A DNA stretch of 64,000 nucleotides from contig CP060229.1 of NCBI GenBank assembly GCA_023898585.1, positions 918,587 to 982,586 of the forward strand, in the 5' to 3' direction. The notes under the pieces were generated by a model, which was not told where the DNA came from, did no database searches, and saw nothing but the letters and a program-made list of their open reading frames with translations. Source of the DNA: Candidatus Nomurabacteria bacterium (GTDB lineage: Bacteria > Patescibacteriota > Minisyncoccia > Phycocordibacterales > UBA918). Both the position numbers and the translations under genes were made by a program. Below, one piece after another: positions 730 through 36,889 of this stretch (positions are counted from its first letter, which is position 1; every line of letters begins with the position of its first letter).

Positions 730-1830
730 TTATCCAGTCCAGTTAAATAGTAATATAGAAAAGTCTTCCAGACCCACCCTACCGTTTCTGTTTATGTCAG
801 CCGGAGGATCTGAATCTCCGCCATTAGTTTGCCACCAGAAAATCAAAATCGAAAAATCAATAAGATTCACAAAACCGTCTCGATTAAGGTCTGATGGTGT
901 GGTCGCTTTGCCGTCAACACCAACAAACAGCTGTAGTGAGGAACTGAAGCTACTCCTGGTTGTGAGTGGTGGCGAACCTACCACAGCACGAGCTCGTAAA
1001 ATATGTTCACTTATTGAGACCCTTGATGTATCAAATACCACAGACCATTCACCGTTAGTGCCTGAAATTACTTCTTCTACAATTGCACTGTTATCGACAT
1101 GAAGTTCAATGGTACTTCTTGGATAACTTTGCCCCGAAACAATAACTTCTGCGCCTGGATCAACATTTTGATTAGGTACTGATATGGTGGGGGGTAAAAC
1201 TACGCCATTAACGTTTGTAATGGCGCCTTGAGTTACATCAAAAGTATTATTTAAAGTGATTGACCTATTTCCTTTGTTGTCAGTGGACCATATTCCAAGT
1301 GTAGCAGTGCCTGGAGAAGCTTTAGTACTAAACTCAAAATCTCCTTGGTTGTTAGCACCAACCGAACCAACAGAAACGGTATCTAGTAAAAAATTAACTG
1401 TCCGAGAGGGATAACCCCTACCCTTGATGTTGATAATTGTGTCTCCCAAATCTCTCGTTGAACCACCGCCACCGGATGAGCCACCGCCCGATGAGCCACC
1501 GCCTCCAGAACCGGCTGGTTCAATTTTGCAGATAGATGAGCAAAAATCTCCATCGTCATTGTTTCCATCGTCACACTCTTCAGCGTATACTGTTTGTAAA
1601 ATCCCATCCCCGCAGTATGGACCAAAAACACACTCCTCTGTACACTGTCTGCCGGCAATAGTTTGGCTATATGCTCCGGTTTCTCCAAGAACGTCACATT
1701 CTTCACCATCATCCACCAATTCATTACCGCAGATACTGATTGTCAGAGTGGTTGATGCCACAAAATTGGCTTCGGAAATAGATGGAATTGCTAGAAAAAA
1801 AAGCAATGTTATTATCCTCACCCCATACAT
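730..1830 (-). CDS. Secreted protein with Myxococcus-type cysteine-rich repeats (CGDG..EECDDGN..DGD.CS..C), a Gly/Ser linker, two Ig-like beta-sandwich domains and a C-terminal type-I-dockerin-like module.
   Basis: Signal peptide MYGVRIITLLFFLAIPSISEA. Repeats CGNELVDDGEECD.../CGDGILQTVYAEECDDGNNDDGDFCSSIC. The C-terminus DLNRDGFVNLIDFSIL...DINRNGRVGLEDFSILL matches the dockerin Ca-binding loop pattern D.N.DG..N..D in duplicate. It is a paralog of the C-terminal half of 34940..36889. Confidence 0.7.
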   Translation of the reverse strand: MYGVRIITLLFFLAIPSISEANFVASTTLTISICGNELVDDGEECDVLGETGAYSQTIAGRQCTEECVFGPYCGDGILQTVYAEECDDGNNDDGDFCSSICKIEPAGSGGGGSSGGGSSGGGGSTRDLGDTIINIKGRGYPSRTVNFLLDTVSVGSVGANNQGDFEFSTKASPGTATLGIWSTDNKGNRSITLNNTFDVTQGAITNVNGVVLPPTISVPNQNVDPGAEVIVSGQSYPRSTIELHVDNSAIVEEVISGTNGEWSVVFDTSRVSISEHILRARAVVGSPPLTTRSSFSSSLQLFVGVDGKATTPSDLNRDGFVNLIDFSILIFWWQTNGGDSDPPADINRNGRVGLEDFSILLFNWTG

Positions 1831-1831
1831 A

Positions 1832-2785
1832 TTACCTACTTACATCCTTCATTTTTCTACGATAATGCCAAACGTAAATACCAGCTATGATTAGGGAAAA
1901 GATCGGCAACAAAACTGACACCTTGTGAGACAAAGATAATCCGAAGAAACCAAATCCGGCCATTTGTAAAGTACCTTCGGGAAGAATATTTAAACTCAAA
2001 TCACCTTCCTGCTTCACCTCATCGCCATTATAAATTGTGTACCTCGCAATATACCCACCAGCCGGCAAGCGAGTCGGTATTTCAGCCACCACAGTTTCTG
2101 TCACATATGGCTTAATCTTCTTAATTCTTCCGATATTCTCCGTCTCTTCAAGTAATGCTTTGCCGGATCTGTCATAAATTCTGAATTCGACGCGTGATGG
2201 TGCGACATTAACATTTCCAGTGTTTTCGATCATCATGCTGAATCTGATTTTACCCGGGAAAAAGAGCCAGGCAAATTTTGAACCCTCATTCAAATCGGGG
2301 GCGGATATTCGCCTAACTCTAAAATCCTTAATCTGCTTGTCGATAACCGATAGTTCAATGTCAACCAAAGCTCCGAGCGAAATACTAACTGCTCCCGGTG
2401 CGACTTGGTCATCATCAGGCAGTGTTCTGATCCGAATACTGCCTTTGTACTCATCAAAAGGAGCGTCTCCTGGCACAGTTATCTTGACAGTCATGGGTAC
2501 TTTTTGAACACCTTGAGGGATCTTTATTTCACTGCCCTCAGCAATAACAATCCAATCTTCAATATCAGGTGCATCTACCACTATTTCTGCCTTTTGAGCG
2601 ACACTGGTGTCACTACGGACTAATAAAATCTGCTGTTCATAAACAGAATTTCTGGTCAAACTGGTGTTTTTAACGTAGGGCGGAGTAATACCAAAACCGG
2701 CCGATGCCTCATCAACACTGACGCTAAGAAATAGCGTAGATAATACAAAACAAAACAGCGTCAGCTTTTGCAAAAGAAAATTCAT
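1832..2785 (-). CDS. Cell-surface protein with an N-terminal signal peptide and a C-terminal TM anchor. It is possibly DUF916/DUF3324-like and a paralog of 37322..38413.
   Basis: MNFLLQKLTLFCFVLSTLFLSVSVDEASA signal. C-terminal hydrophobic LLPIFSLIIAGIYVWHY followed by RRKMKDVSR. Tightly coupled to the downstream gene (1 bp gap). Confidence 0.5.
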   Translation of the reverse strand: MNFLLQKLTLFCFVLSTLFLSVSVDEASAGFGITPPYVKNTSLTRNSVYEQQILLVRSDTSVAQKAEIVVDAPDIEDWIVIAEGSEIKIPQGVQKVPMTVKITVPGDAPFDEYKGSIRIRTLPDDDQVAPGAVSISLGALVDIELSVIDKQIKDFRVRRISAPDLNEGSKFAWLFFPGKIRFSMMIENTGNVNVAPSRVEFRIYDRSGKALLEETENIGRIKKIKPYVTETVVAEIPTRLPAGGYIARYTIYNGDEVKQEGDLSLNILPEGTLQMAGFGFFGLSLSHKVSVLLPIFSLIIAGIYVWHYRRKMKDVSR

Positions 2786-2889
2786 GTGCAGTCTTCACAT
2801 TATCTAAAATAAAAACCTAAAAATCAACAACCACTGTCTAATAACAGTGGTTGTGGTATGTGAGAAAAAGACGTGTATCTTCCAGAATT

Positions 2890-4761
2890 TTACCAGTCTG
2901 CAGTTTCTGCAGTCTTAGCGGTAAAGGTATTTAATCCGCTGTACGCACCGGCTAGTGTTATTGAAGCTGGTACTCTGATACCCCAATAAGTAATACCTCG
3001 TGGTACAGTAGCAAGCGGAGTAGTAGTGGCTTTCTTAACATCCAACTCTAACTCCTGATCTGTAGTGGAAGCAAGGATCAGTGCTATCGGGCTACCGTAA
3101 GCTAAAGAACTTGAACCAAACTTTTGCTCGAATTCCGGAATAGTTGAAGTTGCCGATACTGGACACTCTGTGGCCACACTGAATGTACCACACATTGATT
3201 CGCCTTTTACCAATTGATCGAGACCGGTGTTGCCAATGTTTACAATTGTTGATGTGGCTGATAATGTTCCAGTGTTCTGTCCTGGTTCAATCCCTCCGTA
3301 TGATATCTCATTTGCTAGGACATCAAGTGAGCTGAAGCTGACCAGTTCTTTTGGCGAAGAAGTAGTTGCCATGGTTCCTGTTGCGAAATCATCGTCTACA
3401 CCGGCTACTCCAGCACTCCAGTTTTGAGCGGCGAAAGGTGAGGTTACCGCCCCATCATCTGTTGGGTCCGCGATGAACCATAGTGGAAAAGTACAAGTGT
3501 AATCCATGTAGTCCTGACCGGGACCTGCACAAGTTGATGACGCAACACATGATAAATTCCAAGTAGTCGTCGCTACACCACTATCATAACAATTGTTGGG
3601 GTCGTAATTTGTGCCTGAACCGTCGCAAGTGCTGGACCCGATACCTGAACGGAATATGGTTATTAACATATCGTTAGGGTCCCTAAATTCACTTCCGGAA
3701 GCTGCGTTTATACAGCTATTGGCGTCGGTGACAGTAAAATTGATTGTACTAGATGGTGTTTCTGCGCCAGGCTGGTCAACGACTAAATCAGTACCTGGTC
3801 CAGCATTACCATAAATTTCTATATCTGCACCAACTACTACAGGGGGGACATTATTGACCGTGAAGTTTGCTTGTAGACCATTCGCGAGTGCTTCATGACC
3901 ATGTTTGTCGATCAAGAACCCAAACGCTGGATACACATCATCCCTAATTAGTGATGGTACTGTATAGGTGGCGCTGGCGTCAGACAGAACGCTAATGGTT
4001 GTTGAAGCAATAAACGTACCGCCACAAGTATCCGTTGACGTGCTGAACGAGTTAGAGTTACATACAATCAAGTAAATTTCATCTTCCCCTGGAACGGTAT
4101 CAGGATCGCTAGAAGTGGAGAAAAAAGTCAATGTTCCAGAAGGATCGACAGGTCCGTTATTGTCAAAATCTGACAATACAGGCCTCTTGTTCACATTAAA
4201 AGGTGATGAGTTAGTTGCACTTAAACCTTGGACTGGAATCACCGAACATCTCGGGTCAGTTGGGTCTCCGTCACAAACCCAGGCAAACCAATCGTTTGAC
4301 TCTCCGAATGGCGCTACTTCAGTGGTAGTGGTAGAAACATATGCTTGAGTTCCACTGATTGTGGCAGTTGACACACCCCACTGGATATTCGACGGGTGAC
4401 AAGTGGGAGCCGCGTTATTAACCGGTGTTGGAGAGGCGTTTGTACTGCAGATAAGAAGATAATAATCTGCTGCGTTGGCGTCCGTTCCTATTGCTGACCA
4501 CTGAATGCTGTAACTGGAATTTGTTGGAGTTGAAGTTGAGGATTCAACAACTTCGTAAGCACCCACTGTAAAGACTGGAGGGGTGTTGAGCACTGTGAGC
4601 GTTGTTGTAGCAACCCCGGCTGAGACTTTATTGAATTCCTTAGTCCCAACATCAAAAATGAAAGCAAACATAAAAACCAGTAGCCCGGCCAATGCTGTAA
4701 CTACGGTTATTTTTCCAGCAGTTTTTACGTATTGTGGAAGATTTTCGTTGTGGTAGGTCAT
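2890..4761 (-). CDS. Ser/Thr-rich membrane-anchored surface protein (N-terminal signal-anchor) of unknown function.
   Basis: 623-aa ORF. N-terminal TM ITVVTALAGLLVFMFAFIF. Ser/Thr/Asn/Gly-rich, Cys-containing extracellular region. Confidence 0.55.
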   Translation of the reverse strand: MTYHNENLPQYVKTAGKITVVTALAGLLVFMFAFIFDVGTKEFNKVSAGVATTTLTVLNTPPVFTVGAYEVVESSTSTPTNSSYSIQWSAIGTDANAADYYLLICSTNASPTPVNNAAPTCHPSNIQWGVSTATISGTQAYVSTTTTEVAPFGESNDWFAWVCDGDPTDPRCSVIPVQGLSATNSSPFNVNKRPVLSDFDNNGPVDPSGTLTFFSTSSDPDTVPGEDEIYLIVCNSNSFSTSTDTCGGTFIASTTISVLSDASATYTVPSLIRDDVYPAFGFLIDKHGHEALANGLQANFTVNNVPPVVVGADIEIYGNAGPGTDLVVDQPGAETPSSTINFTVTDANSCINAASGSEFRDPNDMLITIFRSGIGSSTCDGSGTNYDPNNCYDSGVATTTWNLSCVASSTCAGPGQDYMDYTCTFPLWFIADPTDDGAVTSPFAAQNWSAGVAGVDDDFATGTMATTSSPKELVSFSSLDVLANEISYGGIEPGQNTGTLSATSTIVNIGNTGLDQLVKGESMCGTFSVATECPVSATSTIPEFEQKFGSSSLAYGSPIALILASTTDQELELDVKKATTTPLATVPRGITYWGIRVPASITLAGAYSGLNTFTAKTAETADW

Positions 4762-4869
4762 GATAATAAATAAACAAATAACTAACTTTTCTTTATTGTA
4801 CCTAGTTGTAAGATAAATAACTGGTAGTTATACACATGGTACGTGTTAGCTGTGGATAAATCATAAATT

Positions 4870-6081
4870 TTACTCGTATCTAATAGCATCAAGCGGGTTC
4901 AGCGTAGAGGCCCGGCGGGCCGGAAAAATTCCCGTCAGGTACCCAACCGCTGCCGAGAAAACCGCAATAAAAAGAAGAAAATCCAACGGGAAAGAAAATA
5001 GAGTAACGGCCTGCCCGCCGTTTGAGATTGCTACAATATTTAAAAGTATATTAACTACAAAACCCAGAACTACTCCCATTATTATTCCAGTTAAACCTCC
5101 CAAAAAACCAACTACCACAGACTCGGAGACGAACAGATATTTAACATCATTTGGAGATGCACCAATGGTTCTCATGATGCCGATTTCTTTTGTGCGCTCA
5201 AGTAGCGTCACTGTCATGGTGTTGAACATACCGATAGCCGAAACTATAAGGGCAATTCCACCGAAGGTTGCCAAAACAACTTGGATTCCTTGAAAAATCT
5301 TTGAAGCTTGTTCAACGGTTTTTGACAAGGCGGAAACCCGGTAGCCCTCCAATAGTTTTTCCTCTACGCTTTTTAAATTTTCATTTGAGTCAACTCTGAC
5401 TTGGATGCGTTCATATTCTTCAATACCAACGTAATTACGAAGCTCCGGTAGCATCATCGTGGCGTTAAGTACCGCTTGCTCTTTAGTAATTCCCCTGACA
5501 GTATATTCTTTCTCAATTGCCACTTCGTTTACTTTGTCCGTACCATCGTTGGCGGGGACGAGAAGCCGAAACGATACTTTCTCTCCTACAAAATTATCTA
5601 TATCCTCGTCTGCAACACCGAATAACTTCAGAGTAGCAGGAGAAAGCATGATCGAATTGGTGTTACCAATATCATCGTTAACGAAGGTTTCCCCTGCATC
5701 AACGGTTATTCCTGAGTAGCGAAGATAAGGGGGCTCGACTCCTTGAATAAAGACATTACCGGTCAAACCTTTATAAGTGATCAGGGCAGGTATTCTAGCG
5801 AGTGGTGCCGCGTCAAGCACATTGTCCATTTTTTCAAACTCATCAACCGTGTCAGGAGTTAGATTCAAGCCGTGAGCTCCGACTGAAGAAACTCCGAGAG
5901 AAAGCAGTGAGTCGCCGAACACGATTTGTTCTAGAATGATTTGTTGCAAACCAAAACCCAATCCCACTAAGACAACAACCGCTCCAGTTCCTACTCCCAT
6001 ACCAAGAATAGTCAACCAAGTACGAAGTGGATTCGTCTTAAACATTCTGGTCGAGAGTTGTGCCAAATCTTGTATTCTCAT
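4870..6081 (-). CDS. ABC transporter permease, FtsX/MacB family (periplasmic MacB_PCD-like domain plus C-terminal FtsX 3-TM bundle).
   Basis: N-terminal TM, large extracytoplasmic domain, C-terminal TM cluster ...IMRTIGASPNDVKYLFVSESVVVGFLGG.... Start is 1 nt after the stop of the ATPase gene. Confidence 0.85.
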   Translation of the reverse strand: MRIQDLAQLSTRMFKTNPLRTWLTILGMGVGTGAVVVLVGLGFGLQQIILEQIVFGDSLLSLGVSSVGAHGLNLTPDTVDEFEKMDNVLDAAPLARIPALITYKGLTGNVFIQGVEPPYLRYSGITVDAGETFVNDDIGNTNSIMLSPATLKLFGVADEDIDNFVGEKVSFRLLVPANDGTDKVNEVAIEKEYTVRGITKEQAVLNATMMLPELRNYVGIEEYERIQVRVDSNENLKSVEEKLLEGYRVSALSKTVEQASKIFQGIQVVLATFGGIALIVSAIGMFNTMTVTLLERTKEIGIMRTIGASPNDVKYLFVSESVVVGFLGGLTGIIMGVVLGFVVNILLNIVAISNGGQAVTLFSFPLDFLLFIAVFSAAVGYLTGIFPARRASTLNPLDAIRYE

Positions 6082-6082
6082 A

Positions 6083-7405
6083 CTAACTTTTATAACTTAC
6101 ATCCACTCCTTGAGCGATGACTTTTTCGAAGTAACGAGTCATATCGTCCGCTTCAGCCTCACTTAAAGACAAACCTCCGGAGCGGATACTCTTAGTCATG
6201 CGAAGATTCATTTCATCTTCGTTAATAACACCAGTTACTCTATCCGCTATTAATTCGGCCATATTCTCGTCTTGTTCTTTTGAAAACTTTATTCTGTATT
6301 TCCCTGATAAATGATCACGCATTCGTTCAGCGAGAATATGTTGGCTGAAAAATACTCCGTCATTATCTTTTCGAGCTCTGTATCTTTTAATATCGGTCGC
6401 CTGGTCGATCATTTTACTGGCCACATTGACCATTCGTCTGGCTTCTTTTTCATCAATTTCTACGCCACCCCTCTCGAGCGGGAGAATCAAGCTTTTAATA
6501 AAAGCGTCACGATCGATTTTTCCTTGTAAAAATAAATCAGTAGAGTGTTCAAGCCTTATTATCTGGTCAAAAGAATAATCTTGGGTCAAGTAATTAACCA
6601 TACTCTTCACACGCAAAGTTTCTACTGAGTCATATGGGTACAATCGAGCCAATTGCTCAAGCTCAGTCACAATCGTCTCCCCTTCACTAACTGGCTTGAT
6701 CTGCTTGCGTTGCGGATTGACAACTTCACGAACGATATGTCCATCTTTCAAGTAATATACTCTATGCGCATACTTCAAATGAGCAGCGTTGTGAGAAACC
6801 ATGATAATAGTTCGGCGATCAAAAGTGTTAATCTCATCAATCTTATCCATTACTTGTTGTGTAGATATAGAATCAAGGTTTCCGGTCGGCTCATCAGCCA
6901 GGAGAATCTTCGGGTCATTAACCATTGATCGAGAAACCGATACGCGCTGTTGCTGACCTCCGGAAAGCATAGCCGGGATTTTGTGTGATACATGACCTAC
7001 TCCAAAGCGATCTAGAAGTGACTGCGCCCTTCTGTTACGCTTGGTTTTGTCGACATCACAAAAAATCATCGGCAATGCGACATTATCTAACACTGACAGT
7101 GAAGGTATCAAGTTAAATGACTGAAAGATAATACCCATGACATACCTCTGAAAGTAAACACGCTCAGCCGGTGGATAAGAATAGACGTCATCACCCTTTA
7201 CCAATAAAGTACCCTCCCCAGGCGGTAGCGAACCTTGAATAGCATACATCAGAGTTGATTTGCCACACCCCGAAGGGCCGAAGAGAATAATGTATTCGCC
7301 TTCGTAAATATCTGTATTAACACCAGTCAAAGCTTTAAATTCGTTTGACTTTCCTTTGTTGTAGATAATTGAAAGATCCCGACAGACGATGAGAGGTTTT
7401 GCCAT
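6083..7405 (-). CDS. ABC transporter ATP-binding protein (MacB/LolD/FtsE-like) with an unusual C-terminal extension of about 210 aa.
   Basis: Walker A GPSGCGKST, signature LSGGQQQRVSVSRS, Walker B ILLADEPTGNLD, H-loop MVSHN. A charged extension follows the NBD. Confidence 0.9.
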   Translation of the reverse strand: MAKPLIVCRDLSIIYNKGKSNEFKALTGVNTDIYEGEYIILFGPSGCGKSTLMYAIQGSLPPGEGTLLVKGDDVYSYPPAERVYFQRYVMGIIFQSFNLIPSLSVLDNVALPMIFCDVDKTKRNRRAQSLLDRFGVGHVSHKIPAMLSGGQQQRVSVSRSMVNDPKILLADEPTGNLDSISTQQVMDKIDEINTFDRRTIIMVSHNAAHLKYAHRVYYLKDGHIVREVVNPQRKQIKPVSEGETIVTELEQLARLYPYDSVETLRVKSMVNYLTQDYSFDQIIRLEHSTDLFLQGKIDRDAFIKSLILPLERGGVEIDEKEARRMVNVASKMIDQATDIKRYRARKDNDGVFFSQHILAERMRDHLSGKYRIKFSKEQDENMAELIADRVTGVINEDEMNLRMTKSIRSGGLSLSEAEADDMTRYFEKVIAQGVDVSYKS

Positions 7406-7477
7406 TTATACATTATGACATTGTGAAGTAGCTTTTTTTTCAGTCGTCCACAGAGTCAAATTTTTACAATAACTGAA

Positions 7478-9061
7478 TTAAACGTTCTTCACCCATCCAA
7501 ACGCACTTTCAAATTGTTCGATGATTAAATCAATAATATTTTTTTCCTGAATCGGTGTGAACAATACAAAATTTTCAGACCTAATATCATTACCAGATTC
7601 GTCTGTACAAGTGATGTAGAATTGATAGGCGGTTGCCGGGGCAAAATCAACCACCACTTCAACGTGATTCAGGGTGTACGATATTTGCTCTTTTTCTATA
7701 GTGTATGGCTCTGTACCCCCAGCAACTCCTTCTTGATAAGTCATTAAACAACTTGCTTCTTCGTCAGTGTCCCACTCGATAATAGTTTGGATTCTCGACT
7801 CTCCACCCGGAAACAAGGTGGATTCGTTGGTAACGTTCGTTATTATCGGTGGCGCTATATCACGCACAGTTATAAACTGAATTGGTTGGCTACGCACTCT
7901 ATCACCCCCGGAATTCTCAGCTGTCACGAAAGCCACGTACCTAGTACCTAGGGTCAAATCAGCCAATCTCATCTGATGTGTGGTCGACAGTGTAGGTCGA
8001 CCGACTGAATTTTGTGCTCCTGTAGTCTGGTCTTGATATTCTACAAGCGCCTTAGCGGGCACGTTTGTGTCCCAAGCCAGGGTCGCTGAATTCTCTTCGA
8101 CTTTTAGCACTCTTAGATTTCTTATGTCGGGCGCTGTCGCTTTAGTTTGAAAGGTATAGTTACGACTTTCTCCAGTTATATTATAAGTATCAGTGGAGAC
8201 GACCTTAAAGTCATATTCCGTGAAAGGATTTAGTCCAATGAGCTGTATCTCATGTTCAGTTGTGTTACCTTGAGTTGATTTCTGCGAGTAGGCGTAGTTA
8301 GTACCATCAAAACCTCTGCGGGGCGAGAACAACACTTCAGACGAAGCCTCCCTGTCCGTGGTCCAACGGATAATAGCGGTGGTGGTTTCTGGAATAACCG
8401 TTGGCGGACCGACGATTGTAAGGTCTTCCGTAATACCCTCAATCGCCTTGAGAGTTTCATTTAGAATTTCCTTCAGTTGTTCAGGGTTGGTAATTTCATT
8501 TATTTTTTCGATTATTTTGTGAGTTGTTTCGGAATCAATCTGCGATTCTGTTGCTATTTGCGTCTCGGGCCTCTTGTTGTCACCATCACCGGCTAAAGTA
8601 CCTTGCCCATCTCCCTGTGCTCTGTCTTGTCCGACATTTTCACCATCACCGGTTTGCGGAACACCGGATGTTTGAACTCGATAATCTGCTGAGATTCCTT
8701 GGTTGCCATCAGTGTCAGCAGACACAACTCGGAAGTAATAAACCCTACCCGGCTCAAGATCATCGAGCGTGATTGAATGGGAAGTTCTTTCAGCCACCGG
8801 TATGCGGACAATACCGTAGTCTGGCTTAAGGCCATAGTTAACAAGTGAATCAGCGTTTTCGTCGGTTGTCCAAGTAATCGTTACGCTGGTATCTGAAACA
8901 TCGGTTATTTCAACATTGTCGATGTCGGGAGCTGTAGTGTCGGCCGCAAGCGCAAAAGTGGCAGGTTGACCAGCAAGTAATATACCTAAAATAAGAACAA
9001 GGGATAAAAAACCTTTCATTACCGTAAGTGTAGCACGTGATATTTTTACAGAAAATAACAT
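7478..9061 (-). CDS. Secreted protein with about 4 fibronectin type III / purple-acid-phosphatase-N-like domains.
   Basis: Signal peptide. Repeated units like SVTITWTTDENADSLVNYG...LEPGRVYYFRVVSADTDGN, SATLAWDTNVPAKALVEY..., IIEWDTDEEASCLMTYQ.... Lies 9 bp downstream of the giant gene. Confidence 0.75.
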   Translation of the reverse strand: MLFSVKISRATLTVMKGFLSLVLILGILLAGQPATFALAADTTAPDIDNVEITDVSDTSVTITWTTDENADSLVNYGLKPDYGIVRIPVAERTSHSITLDDLEPGRVYYFRVVSADTDGNQGISADYRVQTSGVPQTGDGENVGQDRAQGDGQGTLAGDGDNKRPETQIATESQIDSETTHKIIEKINEITNPEQLKEILNETLKAIEGITEDLTIVGPPTVIPETTTAIIRWTTDREASSEVLFSPRRGFDGTNYAYSQKSTQGNTTEHEIQLIGLNPFTEYDFKVVSTDTYNITGESRNYTFQTKATAPDIRNLRVLKVEENSATLAWDTNVPAKALVEYQDQTTGAQNSVGRPTLSTTHQMRLADLTLGTRYVAFVTAENSGGDRVRSQPIQFITVRDIAPPIITNVTNESTLFPGGESRIQTIIEWDTDEEASCLMTYQEGVAGGTEPYTIEKEQISYTLNHVEVVVDFAPATAYQFYITCTDESGNDIRSENFVLFTPIQEKNIIDLIIEQFESAFGWVKNV

Positions 9062-9070: not shown

Positions 9071-12000
9071 TTAATCAGCTATTGCAGTGAACGTATTGAC
9101 TCCGCTGTGTGGATGACTGGCGGTACCAAACGGTACTTCAACCCCCCAATAAATATTATCGGCAACCGGAGGGTTATCTACCAGAGGTTTGGAGAGGTCT
9201 ACCTCGACATCTGCACCCGTTACAGACAACGAATTACAAGACGCACAGGCTGAATAATCAAAGGTCGAGGTTGCGAACACTTGTTTGGCTGCCGGAATAA
9301 TAGAAGCTATGCCATCGGTCATGTCGGTTCCGGAAATTTGAACATCAATTGCCTCGTTACCAAAGTTAAGTAACGAAGTCAACGGATTAAAGGTGCCGGT
9401 ATTCTGATTAATATCGAGCGTACCGTAACCAATAGCATTCTGCACATCTAGTGCTCGGAGAGTAAGCAACTCCACTCCAGGTGATGTTCCGAAGTCATTT
9501 GCCCCACCAGTGTCAGAAACTTCCATGAAGGCAAACCATTCTTCACCTCCATCCGCGTCAGTTGCGTCGGCGTGGAACTGAAAATCAGCTGAGCATGTGA
9601 GTGTGCACGAAGAACCAGCACAAGCACTGAAGACACAATCAGTACTTGAAGCTATATAACAATTGTTGTTGTCCGGAGTACAAGAGGCCCCAACCGTCGT
9701 TCGATAGAAAGTGGTGGTTGCACTCTGTAGGTCTGTGTAGCCGTTGTAGTCAGTAACCGTGGTTGTTGCTACGACCGTAGTGGTAGCTCCAGGAGTAAGT
9801 GCTATATCGAAACCTCCGTTTAGCACGATCGGGTCAAGTACAGGATCAAATTCTAGTGATAATTCCGGCAGTAACGCGTAAGAATCGAGGATATTGCCAC
9901 CATCTGTGACACGGAAACAGTAGGAATCATTTGTAGCGTTGGTTGTTAGTTTAATGGCGTACTCCAACTCTGTGTATTTATTTTGATCCACATCAATATT
10001 CGAAGTCTGGTTGCTTGTGTCAGAAACTATTTCTCCAGCAACGAACGGTCCAGCATCAGTCACCAGATGATCTGTTGTTGGGTCTCCATTCGTGGTACTG
10101 GCAGAAGTGGTCATACAGATGGCCGATGAACCGCAACTCGACAACACCGGAACCTGAACAAAAGACCCTCCAGAAACAGCCTGACAACTCGGTGCGGAGA
10201 GCTTTGGAGCAAATTCAAGCCTGAAGTTTTGGTTGACAATCGGCAACCCAGTATTCTCGATTCCGATTCTTAGTCTAGCAGTTTCGTCGTAGACAAATCC
10301 GCTTCCGAGCGTATTTTGTGGCGAAGCCCAACTAGCCCCACCAGCTTGTTGTTCGGCACCGAAGTGAACAGTTGGTTTTTTGTCGGTACGTGGCCATGCT
10401 ACATAACTGTCCCAACCGCCGTTCTGGAACCAGAACGTAAAGCCAATTCCTCCACTAGTGTAGGTACTGTCTGTGGCTGAAGTGGTTGCTACCAATGTAC
10501 CGGCGGAAGTATACACCTCAACATCAATATTGTTGTTAGTTTGCCAATCAATTTCCACTTCGTACCAACCGGTACTGAAGCTGATCGTAGACGAAGCTAA
10601 TACCGTTCCGGTTGAATCGGTATTGTGAACATTCTTCACCAACGAAACCCTGTCTGTTCCAAACTGTTCAAGACAAACAGCGTAATTTTGGTGAGCGGTG
10701 ACGGGTGACTGTACACCGAACATTGTACAAACTTCGTCTCCACTACCAGCAGTGGTGTCGATATATTGCATGTAGCGAATTATGTCACCTTGAGCAACTG
10801 TCATATCAAACCGCGCTATACCATTGTTTGTTTTGTCATTGGGGTTAGGTGAAGCGTCAAGCCCGAAACCACCGCCGTAAGCAAATGTTCCGGCTGTTGC
10901 TAGTTTTGTTGTGTCTCCAGAATATTCAGTGATATTGTTATCGTCAAAGTTGTCATAGGCTGTGAATACATTACTTATGTCTGAAGTTGTGTTAGCGCTT
11001 ACGTTTCCATAGTACATGTAGATTTCTGTCACACTGCTCGTTGCCATGGTTGGAATACGTACCCACACGTCAGCTTCATCTCCTGTGGTATACCGCTCCT
11101 TCCAGTAACCTATTTCCGTGACACCGGTAGCATCGGTAAACCTCAAGTCATCAAAGTCAGTTTGCATATCTGAGTCATAGGCTATATCCAATTTCACCGC
11201 GACATCCGTATAAGCTGAGGCTTCAGTATTAATGACCCGCACTCGCTGGCGAGAGCTCCAGTTTGAGTCAAACCATGTTCCCGACGGCGCTCCTTCTCCC
11301 CCATCATCATTTCTCCAGCGATAGGTCGTTTGTTCAGTTAGGAGACACTGACTATCATCCCATCGTACAGAGCTACAATCATCAGTGCCGTCGATATCAA
11401 ACGCTTCACCCCACAGATCTCCAATAGCACCCGTGAATGACCAACTATTAGTGGTTGTTGCATCAAGCGAAACGTTAGTGCCGGGCGTAAATCCACCATC
11501 AGCAAAACGAGTATTATTTATTATTAGTGAAGCATTTGCATTAAGAGTTGATGATGATAATGAGATAAGAACTGAGCTATTCAATCCCTGCTCAAAATCA
11601 CCGTAACTGATGGAAGTAATGTGCGCGTTATTTGTAAACTGTAGACCGGATGTGCCAAGATTACGGAATGAGTAGTAGTTGGCGTTGAAGGTACCGCTTT
11701 TAACAACGAAGTTATAGGTACCAGCTCCTTGGTTCGTGATAGTTGATGTTCCGTTAGCAATACCGATAATGTTAAGGGTTCCCCCGTCAAGCGTGATAGT
11801 GGAACTGCTGGCAACAGTAACACTAACATTTCGTGGTGAACCCCCGAGAGCGACTCCGTCAAAGTCGGTGGCTCGACTCCAGTACTCAGTGGTAACAGGA
11901 ATATGATAATCACCGTAAATATTTAATTTTCCGTTACTACCACCATGATCTTGTGAATACCAAGAGCCAGATAACGAAACAGTCGAGCTGGTCGCTGAAG

Positions 12001-27000: not shown

Positions 27001-30000
27001 TTGGATAGGTCGACTCAATAACAATACCGTCACCATCTACTCCCTGACCAGAGTTTGGCAGGTCGGTATTTGAGGTTGCCACACTGCTGGTCGAAATATT
27101 GTGAGTCTCATCAGCAGAAGCAGATGCTGCTATGTAAGTCCGAACAGTGGTGCTGGCAAAAGGTGAATACATATACCAGCGGTTTGTGTTGCGGTTGGTT
27201 GGAATAGCAAAAGATGTAGAAGCAAAACTAACCGGAGCTATCATGTCGGAACCGTCAGTACCGGAGCCGGTAACTGTGCCTGAAATCGGACCAAGTGCAC
27301 TAACAACTGAAGCTCCAGTAAACGTAACGAAGGTGGTGATTTCACCCTGATTCAAGCTAATGGGTGTACCCCCATCTATTGCCACTTCATTATTGTCCAT
27401 CAAACTTTCCACCGAAACTTGTGTTCCGCCACTATCATCCACAACGTAGTACAAATCAGTGCTGGTGCTGTAGCTGAACGTTGCCAACTCATCACTTGCT
27501 GAACTGGCTCCACTGTTTCCGTAATACATGTAGATCAAGGTCTTTTGACCGGCCGGAACTGAGTCAACCTGTACCCAGATATCGGTTTCTTCATTAACAC
27601 TGTCGAAATGCTGAACCCAGAAATCTAATTCTTTAAACTGAGTAACATTTAACGATTCGACACTTGAAGTTGAGTAGAAACTTTCCGGTGACGCTTGGTT
27701 GTTATACTCGGTAGCTGCCCAACTCGCAGAACGGACAACACTAGCAATCCTCAACTCGTCTAAGAAACCTTCAAAGTTTTCAGTAGCACTAAAACCTCCA
27801 CCGAGCGAATCTTGATCCTGTCCTACTATAAGTCCACCATTTTCTATATTTAGAGGAGCGATTGGCTGTGGATCAGGGTTTTCGGTGTCTCCGACACCAT
27901 TAACGTAAATGTTCATCTCATCTATAGAATCTTCCGATGTAGTGATGTAATGTTGCCAGTTACCATTATTGTAATTGACGACTGTATCAGCAAGACCGAA
28001 AGTTTCACCCGCACCTTGAGAGTAAACGATGAGATTTACATCATTATCAAATCTCTCCCAAAACTCATTAAACTGTGTACTGTTGGCTCCGCTGAGGATT
28101 GTCTGATCACCAGACGAGGAAGAAATGTGCCACCAGGAAACCGAGTTATCACCAAGACCATTCATCACTTGATAAGGCAGGCTTATGTAGTCTGTCTGAC
28201 TATCTCCAAATTCTTGACCAGATCCTAAGCGACCATACTTTCCATTTGAAGTGTTTTCATCGTCTCCGTGGTAATTGTTAGCAGTTGAGTCTTTATATAC
28301 ATTTGGATTACCGGTCCCGACCGCACTTCCTTCCAGGTGATAAACCGCTTGGAAACCATTGGTCCAGACATTTTGTGCACCATAAGTCGCGGTTTTAGCA
28401 TAGGCGGTAGCGTCACTATTATTGAAGTAGATGTAATAGTCTTTGTCTTCAGTCGAAGTTAAGTCGGTCTTGAAATACAATTCCCCTGTCTTCGCACCAG
28501 TGTTTATATTCACCAGCTCAAACGGCAATTCCGTCTTACTATCTGCCATAGTCACTCTGATGTCACGACCATCTGAGGCAACATCAGCAAAGAAAGCGTC
28601 GCCTAAAGTGGACAAATCTACGTAAACAGGGAAATCAGCGATGTCTGAAGAAGCTTGTAGGGTGATCTTTTGACGACTATCCCAACTGGTCGAATACCAG
28701 CCACTCATACTATCGCCTCCGGTTAACCTACTGGTACTGGTTGAGTAGAAAGCAGTTGGGTTCGTTTGGTTTAAATGTTCTGTGGCTATCCAGCCCGAAG
28801 TAAATGGTGCGTCTTCGAAAGCAAATCTGAGCTCATCAATAATTCCTTCGTACGATCCACCGGTGGTATAACGACCAACCTGTAATCCACCAGTATTGGA
28901 CGGATTAGCTACATTCTGTATACCACTTAACTCAGCGACAGCATTGTCGTAAATTCCATGGAAACCACCGATATTGGCGGGAGCAATGGTGGTGAAGTGA
29001 TGCCACACGTTAATGTCACGAGACCAGGTAGTATTTTGATTAAGACCAAAATACAAGTAACCACGACCGGACGCAGCGGCATTCAAGTACCAGGGCATAT
29101 ATGAGGCCCAGTTCGGTGCGTTGTTTGTTCCCCATTGCCAAAGCGCTTCGGCCGAGTTTGCGGTCTGATAGTATAGACCGGTTGAGACCAAATCGTCTCC
29201 CCCAGGCAACGCCCAGTCATCTCCAACATCTCGTAGAATACCTGAGGAACCTCTTAAATCAAGCGCGGTACCCATGGCACCAGTAGTGGTTGCTAAAGAC
29301 GCCACTTCAACTTGGAGTTCCTGACCATTACCAGTTTCATCAGTGATGATGTTATTGATCGCAGTAGGGTCATCTGAGAAGTGATAAACAGCTTCGTAAT
29401 TCGACCAAACAGCCTGAGACCCGTATTGACTTGTCGAAGCATAGGCGGTTGCTGATGGATTATCAAAATAAATATGGAAAACATTGTCGGAAACACTACT
29501 TAGATTTCCAGCGAGAAAATGTAATTCCCCGGTTTCTGCTGTAGCGTCAATCTCCACCAAGTCATGAGGCACTTCTGTTGCACCATCACTTTTTGTGACT
29601 CTGATATCACGACCGTCTGAAGTGACTCCGTTCCAGAAATACGAGCCGAGCGTTGACAGATCAACAAAAACGGGAAAATCGCTGACACCTGAACTAACAC
29701 TAGTTGATGCTATAACGATGGCCAATCTGCCACCCCAGTTAACATTAAAAGCATTTTCAAATTGCGGACCGTTTCCGGGATACAAATTACCAACTGACGT
29801 TTCTTGCACGAACCGAATATCACTTCCGTCTGAGTTAACGTTAGCCCAAAAATCTGATAGAGCGCTGTCGATTTCAAAAAATACTTGTTGTTCAGTCAGA
29901 TCAGTCTTTCCGTTGGTGTTATCAACTAATATAGGTATTCGATACTGCCACTGTGAAGACCAGAATGGATCAAGAAGTCCGTATTCACTATCTCCAATAG

Positions 30001-32671: not shown

Positions 32672-32694
32672 TAATTTAAAATTTCTGTGGATTA

Positions 32695-32745: not shown

Positions 32746-32803
32746 TGATACAGGTTGCACTTTGAATGCCAAAGGGTGTTCAGAAATGATGATATGAAGA
32801 AAC

Positions 32804-34354
32804 TTATTTCAAAATTGTTTTTACATCGTTGATCTCTTTCTCAATCAAAGTTTCCGAAACTTCGAGCGCCTGAGTTAGTCCTTCGACCGCTTCCTTCTCT
32901 TTCACAGACAATCTTTTTCTCTTTGTTATGGTGTTAATCTGATCGTATATTTCATCTCTGAGAGCGGAAAAGATTTTCTCCATCTGATCTTGAATCTCTC
33001 TGGTCTCGCGTCTAAGTTTGTCTTCTCTTTCTTTTAGCTTCTTGTGTTCATACCAAGAATAAACAATTTGGAGAAGTATGACCACTACCATGAATAAAAT
33101 AAACAGATTCATCGGTGTCAGGAAGTCCCAGAACGAACCTTCGTCGACAACCTCCACCGGTTTAATCCATCCAGCAGTGATTAACACTGCCACACTACTT
33201 TCCCGAACGTTACCTGCTTTGTCATGTGCTACCACTTTTACTGTGTATGTCCCATCCTCCAGCTTACTCAATAAGTAACCAACTCGCGCCTCGTCGGGGG
33301 TTACCTTGAGTGGTTCTCCGTCTGCCACTGTAATTTCGTAGTAATCAATGCCAGAAGTAATGTCTCTAGCTTCAAAGTTCAATAACGGGAAAGAATCTTT
33401 AGTCGTTCCAGCTCTCACGTTGACCGCAAAAGGTTCAGGTGGTGTTGTATCAATCAACAATTTACGATTTGTAACGGCTCCCCATCCAACTTGGTTCTTG
33501 AAGTTTATACTTACATACTGCTCGCCATCAGAAATAATGTCTGGCGTAATAACAAATTCCTCAGTCGGTGGTTCAACTAATGCTTCCTTGTTTAACTCAG
33601 GTTTGTTCTCAGGATCTTTGGAAATCTCTACCGCTAGCGCACTGACATCGAAAGGTAGTGTCCAGGTGAACACACCATCGGTCTTGTTATACCAAGTGTT
33701 CGGATCAAGGAAGGTTTGGGAACCTATTTCAGGTTGTCTTGGCGGATCCCCAAAGATAATTGCAGATTCACCACCTTCCTCTTCATCGTCTTCAACCGCA
33801 GGGGGCGGGGTTGGTGTGGGAGTTGGTGTCGGAGTAGGAGTTGGTGTTGAAGCTGGAGTTACCGAAAAATTTCCGCTGATGGAATTTTTATAAACATCAG
33901 TACCACGCCCATCGGCTGCCAAAACTGAGGCCTCAGAAAAAGTTACTGCTCCGGAGCCTTCTGCTACGGTCCTGAAAGTAACGGTTATGATATTGGAAGT
34001 CGTAGTGAACGGAGTCGGACTACCGCCCCCAAAACTGATTGTGCCTTTTGAATTTGAAAAGGTTGGTTCTGTTGTCCAAAGTGAAAAAACCGAGCCGTCT
34101 TTACTAACACTTACAACCGACAGAACAGCCGGGTTGTAAGAGAGTGTGGCTTCAACTGCATTAATATTGTCTCCGTTCGGAACTGCTTTGACCGTGGCGG
34201 TAAATGTCTGACCGACAGAATAACTTCCGGTACTCGGCGACAACGACAGATCGGCTCCGAAGACCGCAGAACCGGGAATAAGAAAAAGCGCTACAACAAA
34301 AAGGGTCTGGATGAGTCTTTGGGTCGTATTTTTAATTTTTTTGAGGTACAACAT
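32804..34354 (-). CDS. Membrane-anchored cohesin-domain protein. It has a signal peptide, a cohesin-like beta-sandwich, a (TP)n linker, a second extracellular domain, a single C-terminal TM and an ~80-aa charged coiled-coil cytoplasmic tail.
   Basis: The N-domain YSVGQTFTATVKAVPNGDNINAVEATLSYNPAVLSVVSV...GTISFGGG...ITVTFRTVAEGSGAVTFSEASVL follows the cohesin pattern (compare CipA cohesins, V.FRYDPNVLEI...). TPTPTPTPTPTPTPPP linker. TM LFILFMVVVILLQIVYSWY followed by KKLKEREDKLRRETREIQDQ.... Confidence 0.65.
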   Translation of the reverse strand: MLYLKKIKNTTQRLIQTLFVVALFLIPGSAVFGADLSLSPSTGSYSVGQTFTATVKAVPNGDNINAVEATLSYNPAVLSVVSVSKDGSVFSLWTTEPTFSNSKGTISFGGGSPTPFTTTSNIITVTFRTVAEGSGAVTFSEASVLAADGRGTDVYKNSISGNFSVTPASTPTPTPTPTPTPTPPPAVEDDEEEGGESAIIFGDPPRQPEIGSQTFLDPNTWYNKTDGVFTWTLPFDVSALAVEISKDPENKPELNKEALVEPPTEEFVITPDIISDGEQYVSINFKNQVGWGAVTNRKLLIDTTPPEPFAVNVRAGTTKDSFPLLNFEARDITSGIDYYEITVADGEPLKVTPDEARVGYLLSKLEDGTYTVKVVAHDKAGNVRESSVAVLITAGWIKPVEVVDEGSFWDFLTPMNLFILFMVVVILLQIVYSWYEHKKLKEREDKLRRETREIQDQMEKIFSALRDEIYDQINTITKRKRLSVKEKEAVEGLTQALEVSETLIEKEINDVKTILK

Positions 34355-34375
34355 ATTTTAAGAACAATTTTCACA

Positions 34376-34843
34376 TCAACGTCTTTTCACATCTTTACCC
34401 CCACTAATCTTTAATTGGACTTTCTCCTTTTCACTTGGTTTTAATAGTGGCAAAACTAGAATTAAAACGCCGTTCTTGATTTTGGCTTCAGCTTTATCGA
34501 TATTTACACTTTCCGGTAAAATTATTCGTCTGTAAAAATCTCCCCATATGCACTCCTCTGCTACAAATGATCCCCGAATGACTTTCTTGGGAAAGACGAT
34601 ATATTCTGGTCTGATTCTCTTCCCTTCTATCAACACGATATCAGCATCACCTTCTATGGAGACATGTACGTCATTCATATCGGCTCCGGCAGATTGCGCA
34701 TAAATAACAATCATCAGTTCTGTTTGATACACGTCTACATGAAGCTGTGCGACTTTGTCCGCCGCCGTTTCCTCAGCATCAGATTGTAGTGACGCATCAT
34801 CATTCCTTACACCCTTACCTTTTAGTCTTTGCAGAAAGGACAT
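34376..34843 (-). CDS. Small heat-shock protein, Hsp20/alpha-crystallin family.
   Basis: ACD-type sequence ...DVYQTELMIVIYAQSAGADMNDVHVSIEGD...FYRRIILPESVNIDKAEAKIKNGVLILVLPLLKP (the G.L.V..PK-like end motif). Confidence 0.85.
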   Translation of the reverse strand: MSFLQRLKGKGVRNDDASLQSDAEETAADKVAQLHVDVYQTELMIVIYAQSAGADMNDVHVSIEGDADIVLIEGKRIRPEYIVFPKKVIRGSFVAEECIWGDFYRRIILPESVNIDKAEAKIKNGVLILVLPLLKPSEKEKVQLKISGGKDVKRR

Positions 34844-34939
34844 ACTTTAATATTATACTCACTCCGTCCTTTCAAAAAATCATTTACCCACACTTTTACT
34901 TTGTAGCTCATTAACACAGTGGTTATCTGCCAGTCAGTA

Positions 34940-36889
34940 TTACCCTGTCCAGTTAAACAGCAGTATGGAAAAGTCAGTCAAACTAACATTACCATCCCGG
35001 TTTATATCCGCTGGTGGATCGGAGTCACCACCATTGCTGTTCCACCAGAAAAGCAAGATCGAGAAGTCAATCAAGTTAACTTTAGTATCCCTGTTCAAGT
35101 CAGCGTTTATGGGAACATCAGCTGTCTTCCCCACTCCATAAAAATGGTATTTTGAATACTGAGTTGACACACCTCCTTCTTGCTCAGATTTTGCTCTGAT
35201 TTGGTACGTACCAACTGAAAACCCGGTTGTATCAATGGTGGTAGACCACTTTCCTGAACCATCAGCTAGAGCTGAATACTGATTCGAAGACTTGGAATTT
35301 ATTTTTCCGTTTTGAATAGTGACAGTAGAGTTAGGTAGCGCATATCCCGATACGGTAATCACACCTCCGGGATCGACCGGATCCGGTGTGACCTTGATGG
35401 AAGGGGACACATTGATATTACTAAGGGCGGAAGTTCTGGAGCCGGTTACGGTAAAAGAAGTACTGAAAGTGGAAGAACGAACATTATTTGGATCGTCCGC
35501 ATAGACACCGAAGGTATAGACACCACGAGCAATTTCATCGAGTGTTATAGAGTATTGTCCAGTTGAGTTGGCAGTAGTCGTATCAAAGAAATTACCGTCA
35601 ACCAAGATACCAACCTTACTACCCGGGTAAGCATACCCGGAAATAATCACTCTACCGTCTCCACTTCTGTATGGTGAACCGAGGTCTTCAAAACCACCAC
35701 CGGCTGTTGAGCCGGTTTTTGATCCGGAACCCCCTCCACCTCCACCACCGGAACCGCCTGATCCGCTAGAACCACCTTCTAGAGGTAACTGACCGCTCGC
35801 TGCTCCCGATTGACCACCTCCGCCAGAGCCTGAGCCGGTGCCATCGTTACCAGAACCGGTTCCGTCACCTTCCACATCTCCTTCCGTATTTGACGTTCCG
35901 GTCGGTTCGTCGTTAACAAAGAACGAGATCACGTAGTCATCAATATTGAAATTGTTTTCATCATCAATACAACGCACATAATAAGTGTTGAGTGCATTTT
36001 TAACTACCGGCACTACATTGGAGTGAAAGATAAAACCGGTATTTGAAAATACGTTAGGCATGGAAGAAAAACTAACGTCTGGAACCGAGCTAAACTTACA
36101 AATAGCCAACTCGTCGGTTTCGAGAGAGATTTCTACGTTGAGTGTAGTACCACCCACAGTGCTTGTTGGTGCACCATTAAAACGAAATGGTGGTACCGTC
36201 TCCGTGGTGTCTACATTCGGCACCGTAACTTTTTCGTTTAAAAAAATGATAAATTCTTCATTGGCCACCAAGCCCCCGTCATAGATTTCCACATTTACTT
36301 CATGAACACCAAGTGTCATCGAATTCTGAATTGGCTCAACATCACCCTGGGTGGTTGTTGTGCCGGTTGAAGTACTGAAAGAGGTCACCGGAATAAGCGC
36401 TGTGGAAGTGTGATTTCCGATTCTAAATTGAAGTCTACTACCGGAGGTTATGCCTGAATCCGGCGCCAGAGTATAGCGAATCAGACCCGGTGATCCGGTT
36501 GTTATCTCAACCATATCAACTCCCGGGGAGGGGGCAGTGGAAGAAATTCTTGGTGTGCCGTTGACGTAAAGTTCAACGTTTCTCTCAGCAAAAGTTGAAC
36601 TCGCGATGATGTCAAATCCGCCTGGCGGTGTTATTTCAATTACACCTCCGGGGGAAACATTAGTATTGAGCAAAAACTCTATGGTGTGATTGGAGTATTC
36701 GCCAGGACCAGAGTCAGACAGTCTATCTTTGTATTCTGATATGTTAAGCGCTTTTGTATACTGAGGTAACAAAAATAAACTACATATCAAGGCACAAAAT
36801 AACACAGTGAGAAACAACGCCCATTGTTTGTGTCCGGTTATCATAATCACATATATTGTAACCCGACGACACGAACATTTTTGCAACAA
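34940..36889 (-). CDS. Secreted protein with the shared N-terminal LSDSGPG module, beta-sandwich domains, a long Gly/Ser linker, two Ig-like domains and a C-terminal type-I-dockerin-like module.
   Basis: N-terminal TM/signal, then ...LSDSGPGEYSNHTIEF.... G/S-rich GTGSGNDGTGSGSGGGGQSG...GGSGGGGGGGSGS linker. C-terminus DLNRDTKVNLIDFSILLFWW...DINRDGNVSLTDFSILLFNWTG is a duplicated D.N.DG..N..D Ca-loop. About 80% aa identity to the C-terminus of 730..1830. Confidence 0.7.
   Translation of the reverse strand: MLQKCSCRRVTIYVIMITGHKQWALFLTVLFCALICSLFLLPQYTKALNISEYKDRLSDSGPGEYSNHTIEFLLNTNVSPGGVIEITPPGGFDIIASSTFAERNVELYVNGTPRISSTAPSPGVDMVEITTGSPGLIRYTLAPDSGITSGSRLQFRIGNHTSTALIPVTSFSTSTGTTTTQGDVEPIQNSMTLGVHEVNVEIYDGGLVANEEFIIFLNEKVTVPNVDTTETVPPFRFNGAPTSTVGGTTLNVEISLETDELAICKFSSVPDVSFSSMPNVFSNTGFIFHSNVVPVVKNALNTYYVRCIDDENNFNIDDYVISFFVNDEPTGTSNTEGDVEGDGTGSGNDGTGSGSGGGGQSGAASGQLPLEGGSSGSGGSGGGGGGGSGSKTGSTAGGGFEDLGSPYRSGDGRVIISGYAYPGSKVGILVDGNFFDTTTANSTGQYSITLDEIARGVYTFGVYADDPNNVRSSTFSTSFTVTGSRTSALSNINVSPSIKVTPDPVDPGGVITVSGYALPNSTVTIQNGKINSKSSNQYSALADGSGKWSTTIDTTGFSVGTYQIRAKSEQEGGVSTQYSKYHFYGVGKTADVPINADLNRDTKVNLIDFSILLFWWNSNGGDSDPPADINRDGNVSLTDFSILLFNWTG

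Follow-up and report, generated by a model that had tools for sequence, protein, structure and literature searches.

A cohesin membrane protein, two dockerin-tailed secreted proteins and an Hsp20-like gene in a surface-protein locus of a Candidatus Nomurabacteria bacterium

The stretch analysed here, referred to as the window, is 64,000 nt of contig CP060229.1 from a Candidatus Nomurabacteria bacterium, and its minus-strand open reading frames (ORFs) are numbered by window position. Nearly all of the long ORFs between positions 730 and 47581 are on the minus strand, as are all of the features described below. They include a gene for a membrane protein with a cohesin module, here named CohTM, and genes for two secreted proteins that end in dockerins, Doc634 and Doc366. 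The order of genes in the locus is o376, o363, o135, Doc634, an Hsp20-like gene, CohTM, a giant-protein gene, an FN3-protein gene, an ABC ATPase gene, an FtsX/MacB permease gene, o623, o317 and Doc366, and the same order recurs in other genomes. An earlier account of this DNA, made from the letters alone (the sequence-only reading), had singled out the CohTM, Doc634 and Doc366 ORFs, and all three were found on the minus strand where it had placed them, save for a likely later start for Doc634. Each of the three products has a signal sequence at its N-terminus, and their nearest relatives are in metagenome-assembled genomes (MAGs) of Kaiserbacteria, Nomurabacteria, Parcubacteria or Paceibacteria, which places the window in a Paceibacteria genome of the Kaiserbacteria/Nomurabacteria type. 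Rfam and tRNA scans detected neither rRNA or tRNA genes nor any other Rfam element in the window, and a promoter and terminator scan gave counts at chance level.

The cohesin protein and the two dockerin proteins

CohTM (32804..34354) is a 516-aa bitopic membrane protein, as judged from Pfam, AlphaFold2 (AF2), Foldseek searches of the PDB, hydropathy and homologues. A signal peptide is followed by a cohesin module (aa 34-166; 33857..34255), a disordered linker made of a (TP)n repeat and acidic residues (aa 167-200; 33755..33856), two Ig/FN3-like stalk domains (aa 201-395; 33170..33754), a single transmembrane helix (aa 408-437; 33044..33133) and a cytoplasmic helical tail (aa 438-516; 32807..33043). 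The Pfam Cohesin family (PF00963) matched aa 44-162 with 35.4 bits (E 1.5e-8; gathering cutoff 24.1 bits), and the match covers positions 10-136 of the 139-position model. In the stalk, Big_13 scored 27.3 bits (gathering cutoff 27) and the match to fn3 was weak.

An AF2 model of CohTM, built on 50 orthologues, had a mean predicted local distance difference test (pLDDT) score of 82. It begins with a signal-peptide helix, which is followed by a confident beta-sandwich at aa 34-166 (pLDDT 84-95), a disordered linker at approximately aa 170-200 (pLDDT about 41-51), two further confident beta domains at approximately aa 205-392, and helices at aa 408-477, which is continuous, and 484-515. When the predicted cohesin was used to query the PDB with Foldseek, solved cohesins, which have a nine-stranded beta-sandwich (jelly-roll) fold, ranked first, with target-normalised template modelling (TM) scores of 0.67-0.78 and root-mean-square deviations of 2.4-3.4 Å. 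The best of them are type I and non-cellulosomal cohesins, with scores of 0.72-0.78 and deviations of 2.4-3.1 Å. The top match was CaCohA2 (6kgf_C; E 3e-10, target-normalised TM score 0.72), and the non-cellulosomal cohesin of Archaeoglobus fulgidus (2xdh) had a target-normalised TM score of 0.78. Other top matches were 2w1n, a Coh-FN3 construct from Clostridium perfringens, 1g1k from C. cellulolyticum, 4dh2, which is OlpC of C. thermocellum, and 3ul4. Hydropathy revealed exactly two hydrophobic segments, the signal peptide (aa 13-39) and the transmembrane segment (aa 407-437), the latter with a peak of 2.41 and a K/R-rich stretch after it. No SLH domain or LPXTG motif was found in CohTM, which instead has the transmembrane helix and the cytoplasmic tail. 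Thus, the main structural proposals of the sequence-only reading for this protein are borne out: the cohesin by a Pfam score above the gathering cutoff and a predicted fold like that of solved cohesins, the (TP)n linker by its sequence and the low-pLDDT segment, and the topology of a signal peptide, one transmembrane helix and a charged helical tail by hydropathy and AF2.

Doc634 (34940..36844) is a 634-aa secreted protein recognised through Pfam, orthologues, AF2 and Foldseek. It includes a signal peptide, beta-sandwich N-terminal domains, a Gly-rich linker, two Big_6 Ig domains and a C-terminal dockerin (aa 577-634; 34943..35116). The ORF is 649 aa long from a TTG at 36889 and 634 aa long from an ATG at 36844. 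The real start is probably the ATG, and the 634-aa product is 100% identical to a database protein (P0121). Doc366 (730..1830), a 366-aa secreted protein recognised through Pfam, TIGR02232 and orthologues, is made up of a signal peptide, Cys-rich DUF4215 repeats that were matched by DUF4215 in Pfam and by TIGR02232 in NCBIfam, a Gly/Ser linker, two Ig domains and a C-terminal dockerin (aa 309-366; 733..906). Big_6 also matched Doc366.

Both dockerins scored above the gathering cutoff of Dockerin_1 (PF00404; 22.9 bits), with 25.7 bits for Doc366 and 28.7 bits for Doc634. Each consists of two D-x-N-x-D-G-x-V-x-L-x-D-F-S-I-L-(L)-F repeats, with a spacing of 31 residues, at the extreme C-terminus. 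The Ca-loop repeats are DLNRDTKVNLID and DINRDGNVSLTD in one of the proteins and DLNRDGFVNLID and DINRNGRVGLED in the other, with FSIL(L/I)F after each. Type I dockerins have repeats of about 22 residues, each with a 12-residue EF-hand-like Ca loop before a helix; accordingly, in both repeats D/N residues occupy loop positions 1, 3, 5, 9 and 12, and a hydrophobic helix sequence follows each loop. A profile made from these dockerins retrieved type I dockerins from the PDB (4fl4_A at 8.7e-5, 2y3n_B, 2mte_A, 1daq_A and 5nrk_B), and the only dockerin motifs in the whole window are those of Doc366 and Doc634. By sequence, then, the two tails are type-I-like two-repeat dockerins, as the sequence-only reading had called them.

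The C-terminal halves of Doc634 (aa 395-634) and Doc366 (aa 129-366), which comprise the two Ig domains and the dockerin, share 39% identity (E 1e-44), and the N-terminal halves did not align with one another. A common half with unrelated N-termini had been proposed earlier and is confirmed. The module shuffling that had been read into it fits this architecture, but it is not recent, as both dockerin proteins are old and stable orthologous groups. Orthologues are 63-76% identical to Doc634 and 68-78% identical to Doc366 over the full length, and Doc366 closes the gene cluster in two other loci (L007 and L008) as well. The dockerin of Doc634 is 83% identical among orthologues, compared with 60-72% for the remainder of the protein, and the helix residues of the dockerin are invariant in about 50 species.

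The mature N-terminal domain of Doc634 (35885..36844) begins like that of o376 (38537..39667), with N-[IL]-x-x-x-x-x-L-S-D-S...H-T-I-x-F (pairwise E 6e-4). This similarity suggests that the operon encodes a shared family of surface-protein domains, with a dockerin on only some of its members.

The presence of cohesin and dockerin modules, together with a GH18 gene about 6 kb upstream, could be taken to indicate a minimal cellulosome-like complex that degrades polysaccharide by means of enzymes attached to a scaffoldin through their dockerins. However, neither a carbohydrate-binding module (CBM) nor a second cohesin was found in CohTM with Pfam or AF2, and no enzyme fold or catalytic domain was found in the dockerin proteins (Pfam and NCBIfam for both, Foldseek for Doc634). 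The GH18 protein does not have a dockerin, and the organism belongs to the candidate phyla radiation (CPR) and has a genome of about 1 Mb. We consider a cellulosome very improbable and rejected it, as no dockerin-bearing enzyme was found in the window and CohTM has a single cohesin and no CBM. With one cohesin, no CBM and no carbohydrate-active enzyme (CAZyme) as cargo, the non-cellulosomal character claimed in the sequence-only reading holds.

Gene order, the CohTM tail and the Hsp20-like gene

When species-representative genomes were scanned for this dockerin type, 233 loci were returned and the best 80 of the 233 were kept. Nearly all of the loci are in MAGs labelled Patescibacteria or CPR, and one of the best 80 is labelled Balneolia. 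Synteny was counted in the Doc634-type loci among these 80 that have at least 2.3 kb of sequence downstream. In all of the testable species genomes (50/50), the Doc634-type gene is followed directly by the Hsp20-like gene and then by the cohesin gene. This triad is also found in distant lineages (L089, L090/L091 and L092), in which CohTM shares just 29-35% identity with its counterpart in the window. As the arrangement is present in 50/50 genomes and the order is kept at 29-35% identity, a functional link between the cohesin and dockerin genes is supported. A giant-like gene follows CohTM in six loci (L001, L003, L005, L089, L092 and L095) and not in L090, and the link to the giant protein that the sequence-only reading had suggested is thus supported by synteny. 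None of the proteins of the triad, or of those encoded around it, is covered by a curated NCBIfam family.

CohTM has more than 885 homologues, and the best 120 clusters match it at 69-79% identity along its full length. When the representatives of 1.84 billion clusters (50%-identity clusters) were scanned exhaustively with HMMER, 1146 of them matched at E<=1e-30, many of which are approximately 500 aa long with the same architecture and 30-49% identity. Among 50 CohTM orthologues, pairwise identity is 90% in the tail, 72% in the cohesin, 71-79% in the Ig domains and 53% in the TP/acidic linker, which is the least conserved segment of the mature protein. The best-kept parts across a divergent set, in which column identity averages 40%, are the cohesin (39%) and the tail (38%). 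A cohesin motif, GS.FSLWT.EP.FSN..GTI.FGGG, is retained down to 30% identity, and a tail motif, KIFSALRDE..EQ...KP.LS..EK...L..AL..SE.LI.KEI.DV, is retained at 30% overall identity. When a profile of the tail was used to query the PDB and Pfam, nothing significant was returned (DUF4381 reached 21.7 bits, under its cutoff of 27.2). As the tail is the most conserved segment of CohTM, a role beyond that of a passive anchor is argued for, and the tail probably binds a cytoplasmic partner.

Two other forms of the family were seen in other lineages. One is a short cohesin-like transmembrane protein of approximately 305 aa that either stands in tandem beside the long form or is fused with it (L093:30-2442; the variant set is P0402, P0419, P0445, P0482, P0487 and P0372). 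The other is an approximately 590-aa form with an additional Ig domain.

The gene between the dockerin and cohesin genes (34376..34843) encodes a 155-aa Hsp20/alpha-crystallin-like protein without a signal peptide, identified from PF00011 and from synteny. The PF00011 match is 35.1 bits (gathering cutoff 20.8), and as the protein falls below the equivalog cutoffs of NCBIfam it is a divergent member of the family. Copies of the gene were located in several other loci (L001:9499-9975, L089:326-781, L090:286-825, L092:4510-5052 and L095:7258-9594). The N-termini of small heat-shock proteins are normally variable, and it is unusual that here one N-terminal motif, M-(S)-x-F-L-Q-x-L-x-G-x-G, stays invariant between lineages that are just 44% identical. 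An in-frame Hsp20::CohTM fusion of 778 aa (P0398) is present in one groundwater organism, where it was recovered twice, from independent assemblies of one sample. Given the gap of only 21 nt between the Hsp20-like and CohTM genes, the invariant N-terminal motif and the natural fusion, the Hsp20-like protein is the best candidate for the partner of the CohTM tail. The sequence-only reading had described a minimal display system. The non-cellulosomal cohesin-dockerin locus in that description stands, but the description undersells the locus, as it missed both the Hsp20-like gene between the pair and the strong conservation of the tail.

Proposed cohesin-dockerin pairing, its alternatives and related systems

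On balance, we think it probable that the locus specifies a conserved, non-cellulosomal, single-cohesin and Ca-dependent surface tether in the Paceibacteria envelope, with synteny as the ground for the binding step. CohTM would be exported via a cleavable signal peptide and kept in the membrane by its one C-terminal transmembrane helix, as a type I bitopic protein. The two Ig/FN3 domains and the Thr-Pro/acidic linker would form a stalk that holds the type-I-like cohesin off the membrane and may span the wall. Doc634 and Doc366, as Sec-secreted and non-enzymatic Ig-like chains, would plug their nearly identical dockerins into the CohTM cohesin and be held on the surface beside the products of the giant-protein and WxLIP-like genes. 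The near-identical dockerin repeats could allow a dual binding mode. Docking would be expected to require Ca, and the two cargos to compete 1:1 for the one cohesin. On the inner face, the tail would engage a cytoplasmic partner, for which the Hsp20-like protein, by direct contact, is the candidate.

Several observations weigh against this tether. The dockerin of Doc634 (aa 579-634) came out unfolded in AF2 (pLDDT <50, no helices), in a model made without Ca from a shallow and nearly invariant alignment, and the dockerin assignment therefore rests on sequence; the Gly-rich linker of Doc634 also had pLDDT <50. Mutual information between dockerin columns and CohTM columns, calculated from 50 paired orthologues, is not raised in the cohesin relative to the signal peptide, the transmembrane helix or the Ig domains. 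There is no covariation signal because the putative contact residues are invariant. The two dockerins are of consistently distinct types, and the differences are kept across species (LIFWWQ and L-E-D in Doc366, LLFWWN and L-T-D in Doc634), while there is one cohesin in the locus; a second receptor elsewhere is possible. An adjacent dockerin or Hsp20-like gene is missing from two loci, L093 and L095, and in L095 the 7 kb upstream of the Hsp20::CohTM fusion, which has a giant-like gene beside it, contain no dockerin gene. The fusion protein is from a single organism, and its linker contains two hydrophobic segments. Finally, some members of the family, P0372 and other variants of approximately 350 aa, have no cohesin and keep the Ig-transmembrane-tail core. 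Together with the loci that lack an adjacent dockerin or Hsp20-like gene, these point to a role of the core that is independent of the cohesin.

The absence of covariation, the distinct dockerin types, the L095 arrangement and the conservation of the tail and core in cohesin-less variants would all be accommodated if the cohesin-like domain were not the receptor of these dockerins. CohTM would then be the transmembrane scaffold of an apparatus of the giant protein and the Hsp20-like protein, with another ligand or a structural role for the cohesin-like domain, and the dockerin tails would bind some other partner, such as a component of the host-cell surface or a second cohesin with its gene elsewhere. 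However, dockerin and cohesin genes occur together in 50/50 genomes and in the distant lineages, and the most conserved motifs of the family fall on the strands of the predicted canonical binding sheet. Cohesins and dockerins are each other's only known partner class, which also counts against this possibility. We regard it as unlikely.

A second alternative is a more specific version of the tether, in which the cargo forms a lattice and is not an adhesin. Doc634, and perhaps Doc366, would be a major subunit of a surface layer (S-layer), and CohTM the membrane anchor that replaces SLH or lipid anchoring. When the Doc634 model was compared with the PDB using Foldseek, only multi-Ig chains were returned (such as the S-layer protein 7ptp, Bap and SiiE). 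The top match was the S-layer glycoprotein of Haloferax volcanii (7ptp_A; E 1.8e-10), and Doc634 is an Ig-like chain and not an enzyme. Both proteins are single-copy, very conserved and universal in the clade, and in Doc634 a Gly-rich flexible linker precedes the foot of two Ig domains and a dockerin. However, the TM score of the 7ptp_A match is low (0.16-0.18) and such matches are generic for multi-Ig chains, with the adhesins Bap and SiiE scoring similarly, and a lattice anchored 1:1 would require a very high copy number of CohTM. An S-layer role is rather unlikely.

Cohesins and dockerins that belong to no cellulosome have been amply described in bacteria and archaea. As in A. fulgidus (2xdh), C. 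perfringens (the 2w1n Coh-FN3 construct) and the ANME archaea, the modules described here lie outside cellulose degradation, and there are few cohesins and no multi-cohesin scaffoldin. Unlike in those systems, the cohesin is on a bitopic protein with a highly conserved tail, the cargo consists of non-enzymatic Ig chains and the genes are in an operon-like order with an Hsp20-like gene. Pairs of the 2xdh, 2w1n and ANME type are also sporadic, whereas the pair found here belongs to the core of an entire CPR class. The anchoring scaffoldin systems of Clostridia (OlpA/OlpC of C. thermocellum, CipC of C. cellulolyticum and CaCohA2) have in common with CohTM and its neighbours the cohesin fold, a two-repeat dockerin and a Thr/Pro-rich linker. 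As in Clostridia, the near-symmetric repeats of the dockerins appear compatible with dual binding. In contrast to the Clostridia scaffoldins, which are anchored through SLH domains or sortase, CohTM has a transmembrane helix and just one cohesin, and neither a CBM nor CAZyme cargo was found.

The WxL/Csc clusters of Firmicutes resemble this locus in having DUF916/WxLIP membrane proteins, here o363 and o317, near secreted proteins that share a C-terminal domain. However, no WxL domain was detected here, and a cohesin-dockerin pair is not part of known WxL clusters.

The eukaryotic-type comparison is with the TMEM132 family, in which extracellular cohesin and Ig domains are followed by one transmembrane helix and a cytoplasmic tail with signalling or cytoskeleton motifs (PMC6030884). 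The outside-inside logic is the same in CohTM and the likeness is in domain types; the order of the domains differs and CohTM is prokaryotic. TMEM132 proteins have no known dockerin partner, whereas CohTM has dockerin genes next door. By analogy, CohTM could be more than an anchor, namely the transmembrane coupler of a CPR-specific envelope machine, with the tail recruiting the Hsp20-like protein via its N-terminal motif. A mechanostable cohesin-dockerin joint would then tie the host-facing Ig-chain proteins and the giant adhesin to the cytoplasm. We offer this as a speculative extension that is quite unlikely to hold in full. If true, it would be a bacterial outside-in link with a logic like that of eukaryotic adhesion receptors such as TMEM132, and episymbiotic attachment might hinge on it.

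Much of bacterial diversity belongs to the Patescibacteria/CPR, which are mostly uncultivated and are thought to be attached to hosts, and how they hold surface proteins and attach is little understood. The module of a membrane cohesin, two dockerin-bearing Ig-chain proteins, an Hsp20-like protein and a giant surface protein is present in at least a hundred species-level genomes. At NCBI, 'cohesin domain-containing protein' or 'dockerin type I domain-containing protein' is already the label of some of the relatives, and no publication on this system came up when the literature was searched for cohesins or dockerins in Parcubacteria, Kaiserbacteria or CPR. The transmembrane anchor with its conserved tail, the Hsp20-like partner gene, the Ig-chain cargo, the association with a giant protein and the clade-wide core status appear to be undescribed in the searchable literature. 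If the tether proposed here is correct, cohesin-dockerin biology would extend from the assembly of enzymes to core envelope architecture, and a transmembrane helix with a conserved cytoplasmic tail would be a new mode of anchoring. Transposon sequencing of a cultivated Saccharibacterium found a dockerin-domain protein among the essential envelope proteins (PMC10633639). Such dockerin modules may be important in the CPR.

Neighbouring surface-protein genes

Directly downstream of CohTM is the gene for a giant secreted protein (9071..32653; a 7860-aa ORF), in which Pfam recognised only Pentaxin, DUF2341 and Ig_Rha78A_N. Neither Pfam nor a motif search found a cohesin or dockerin in it. At the start of the ORF (32400..32653), approximately 60 basic residues precede a typical signal peptide (…KKQRHLAISTITLLLIAVLPYVNA/QPSS), and the true start of the giant protein may lie downstream of the ATG at 32653.

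Upstream of Doc634 (36890..39667) are the genes for o135, a small transmembrane protein, o363, a WxLIP_PGBD/DUF916-like protein with a C-terminal transmembrane helix, and o376, a secreted protein, which were identified using Pfam and synteny with L003, L005 and L092. The segment between the giant gene and Doc366 (1832..9061) encodes the FN3-repeat protein, the MacB-type ABC ATPase and FtsX permease, o623 and o317, identified using Pfam, and has the same order in L007 and L008. The match of o363 to WxLIP_PGBD is 37.3 bits (gathering cutoff 27.3). o363 (37322..38413) and o317 (1832..2785) are paralogues (24% identity, E 9e-11) that each have a signal peptide, a DUF916/WxLIP_PGBD-like domain and a C-terminal transmembrane helix, and they flank the block containing the cohesin and giant genes.

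The C-terminal approximately 260 aa of o623 (2890..3789) are homologous to the C-terminus of the giant protein (9071..9970; 31% identity, E 1e-18), and both proteins end in ...YWG(I/V).VP...SG(L/V)NTFTA. This common module is perhaps an anchoring or secretion signal. Even at E<=10, Pfam found no WxL domain in o376, o623 or the giant C-terminus, and a WxL identity for these C-termini was dropped for want of Pfam support. The alignment of o376 with o623 was not significant.

The MacB-type transporter (4870..7405) pairs a 440-aa ATPase, which has a long C-terminal extension, with an FtsX/MacB_PCD permease. It comes right after the giant gene, a position that is kept in relatives, and is accompanied by the FN3-repeat protein (7478..9061), which has several FN3 repeats. 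The transporter may take part in export or mechanotransmission for the surface proteins.

A second surface-protein cluster is found at 50202..54569. It includes two proteins with a camelysin/TasA-type N-terminal signal region, where the Peptidase_M73 match is limited to aa ~16-63, one of which also has DUF642, and a protein with a Lamin-tail domain. Between the two clusters (39970..45443 and 47914..48588) are genes for a UmuC-like Y-family polymerase (IMS) and a UmuD/LexA-like S24 peptidase, with a GH18 chitinase-like gene between them and a gene for a CAP-domain protein after. An IS200-type Y1 transposase gene is nearby, and the IMS/GH18/S24/CAP arrangement is kept in L003 and L005.

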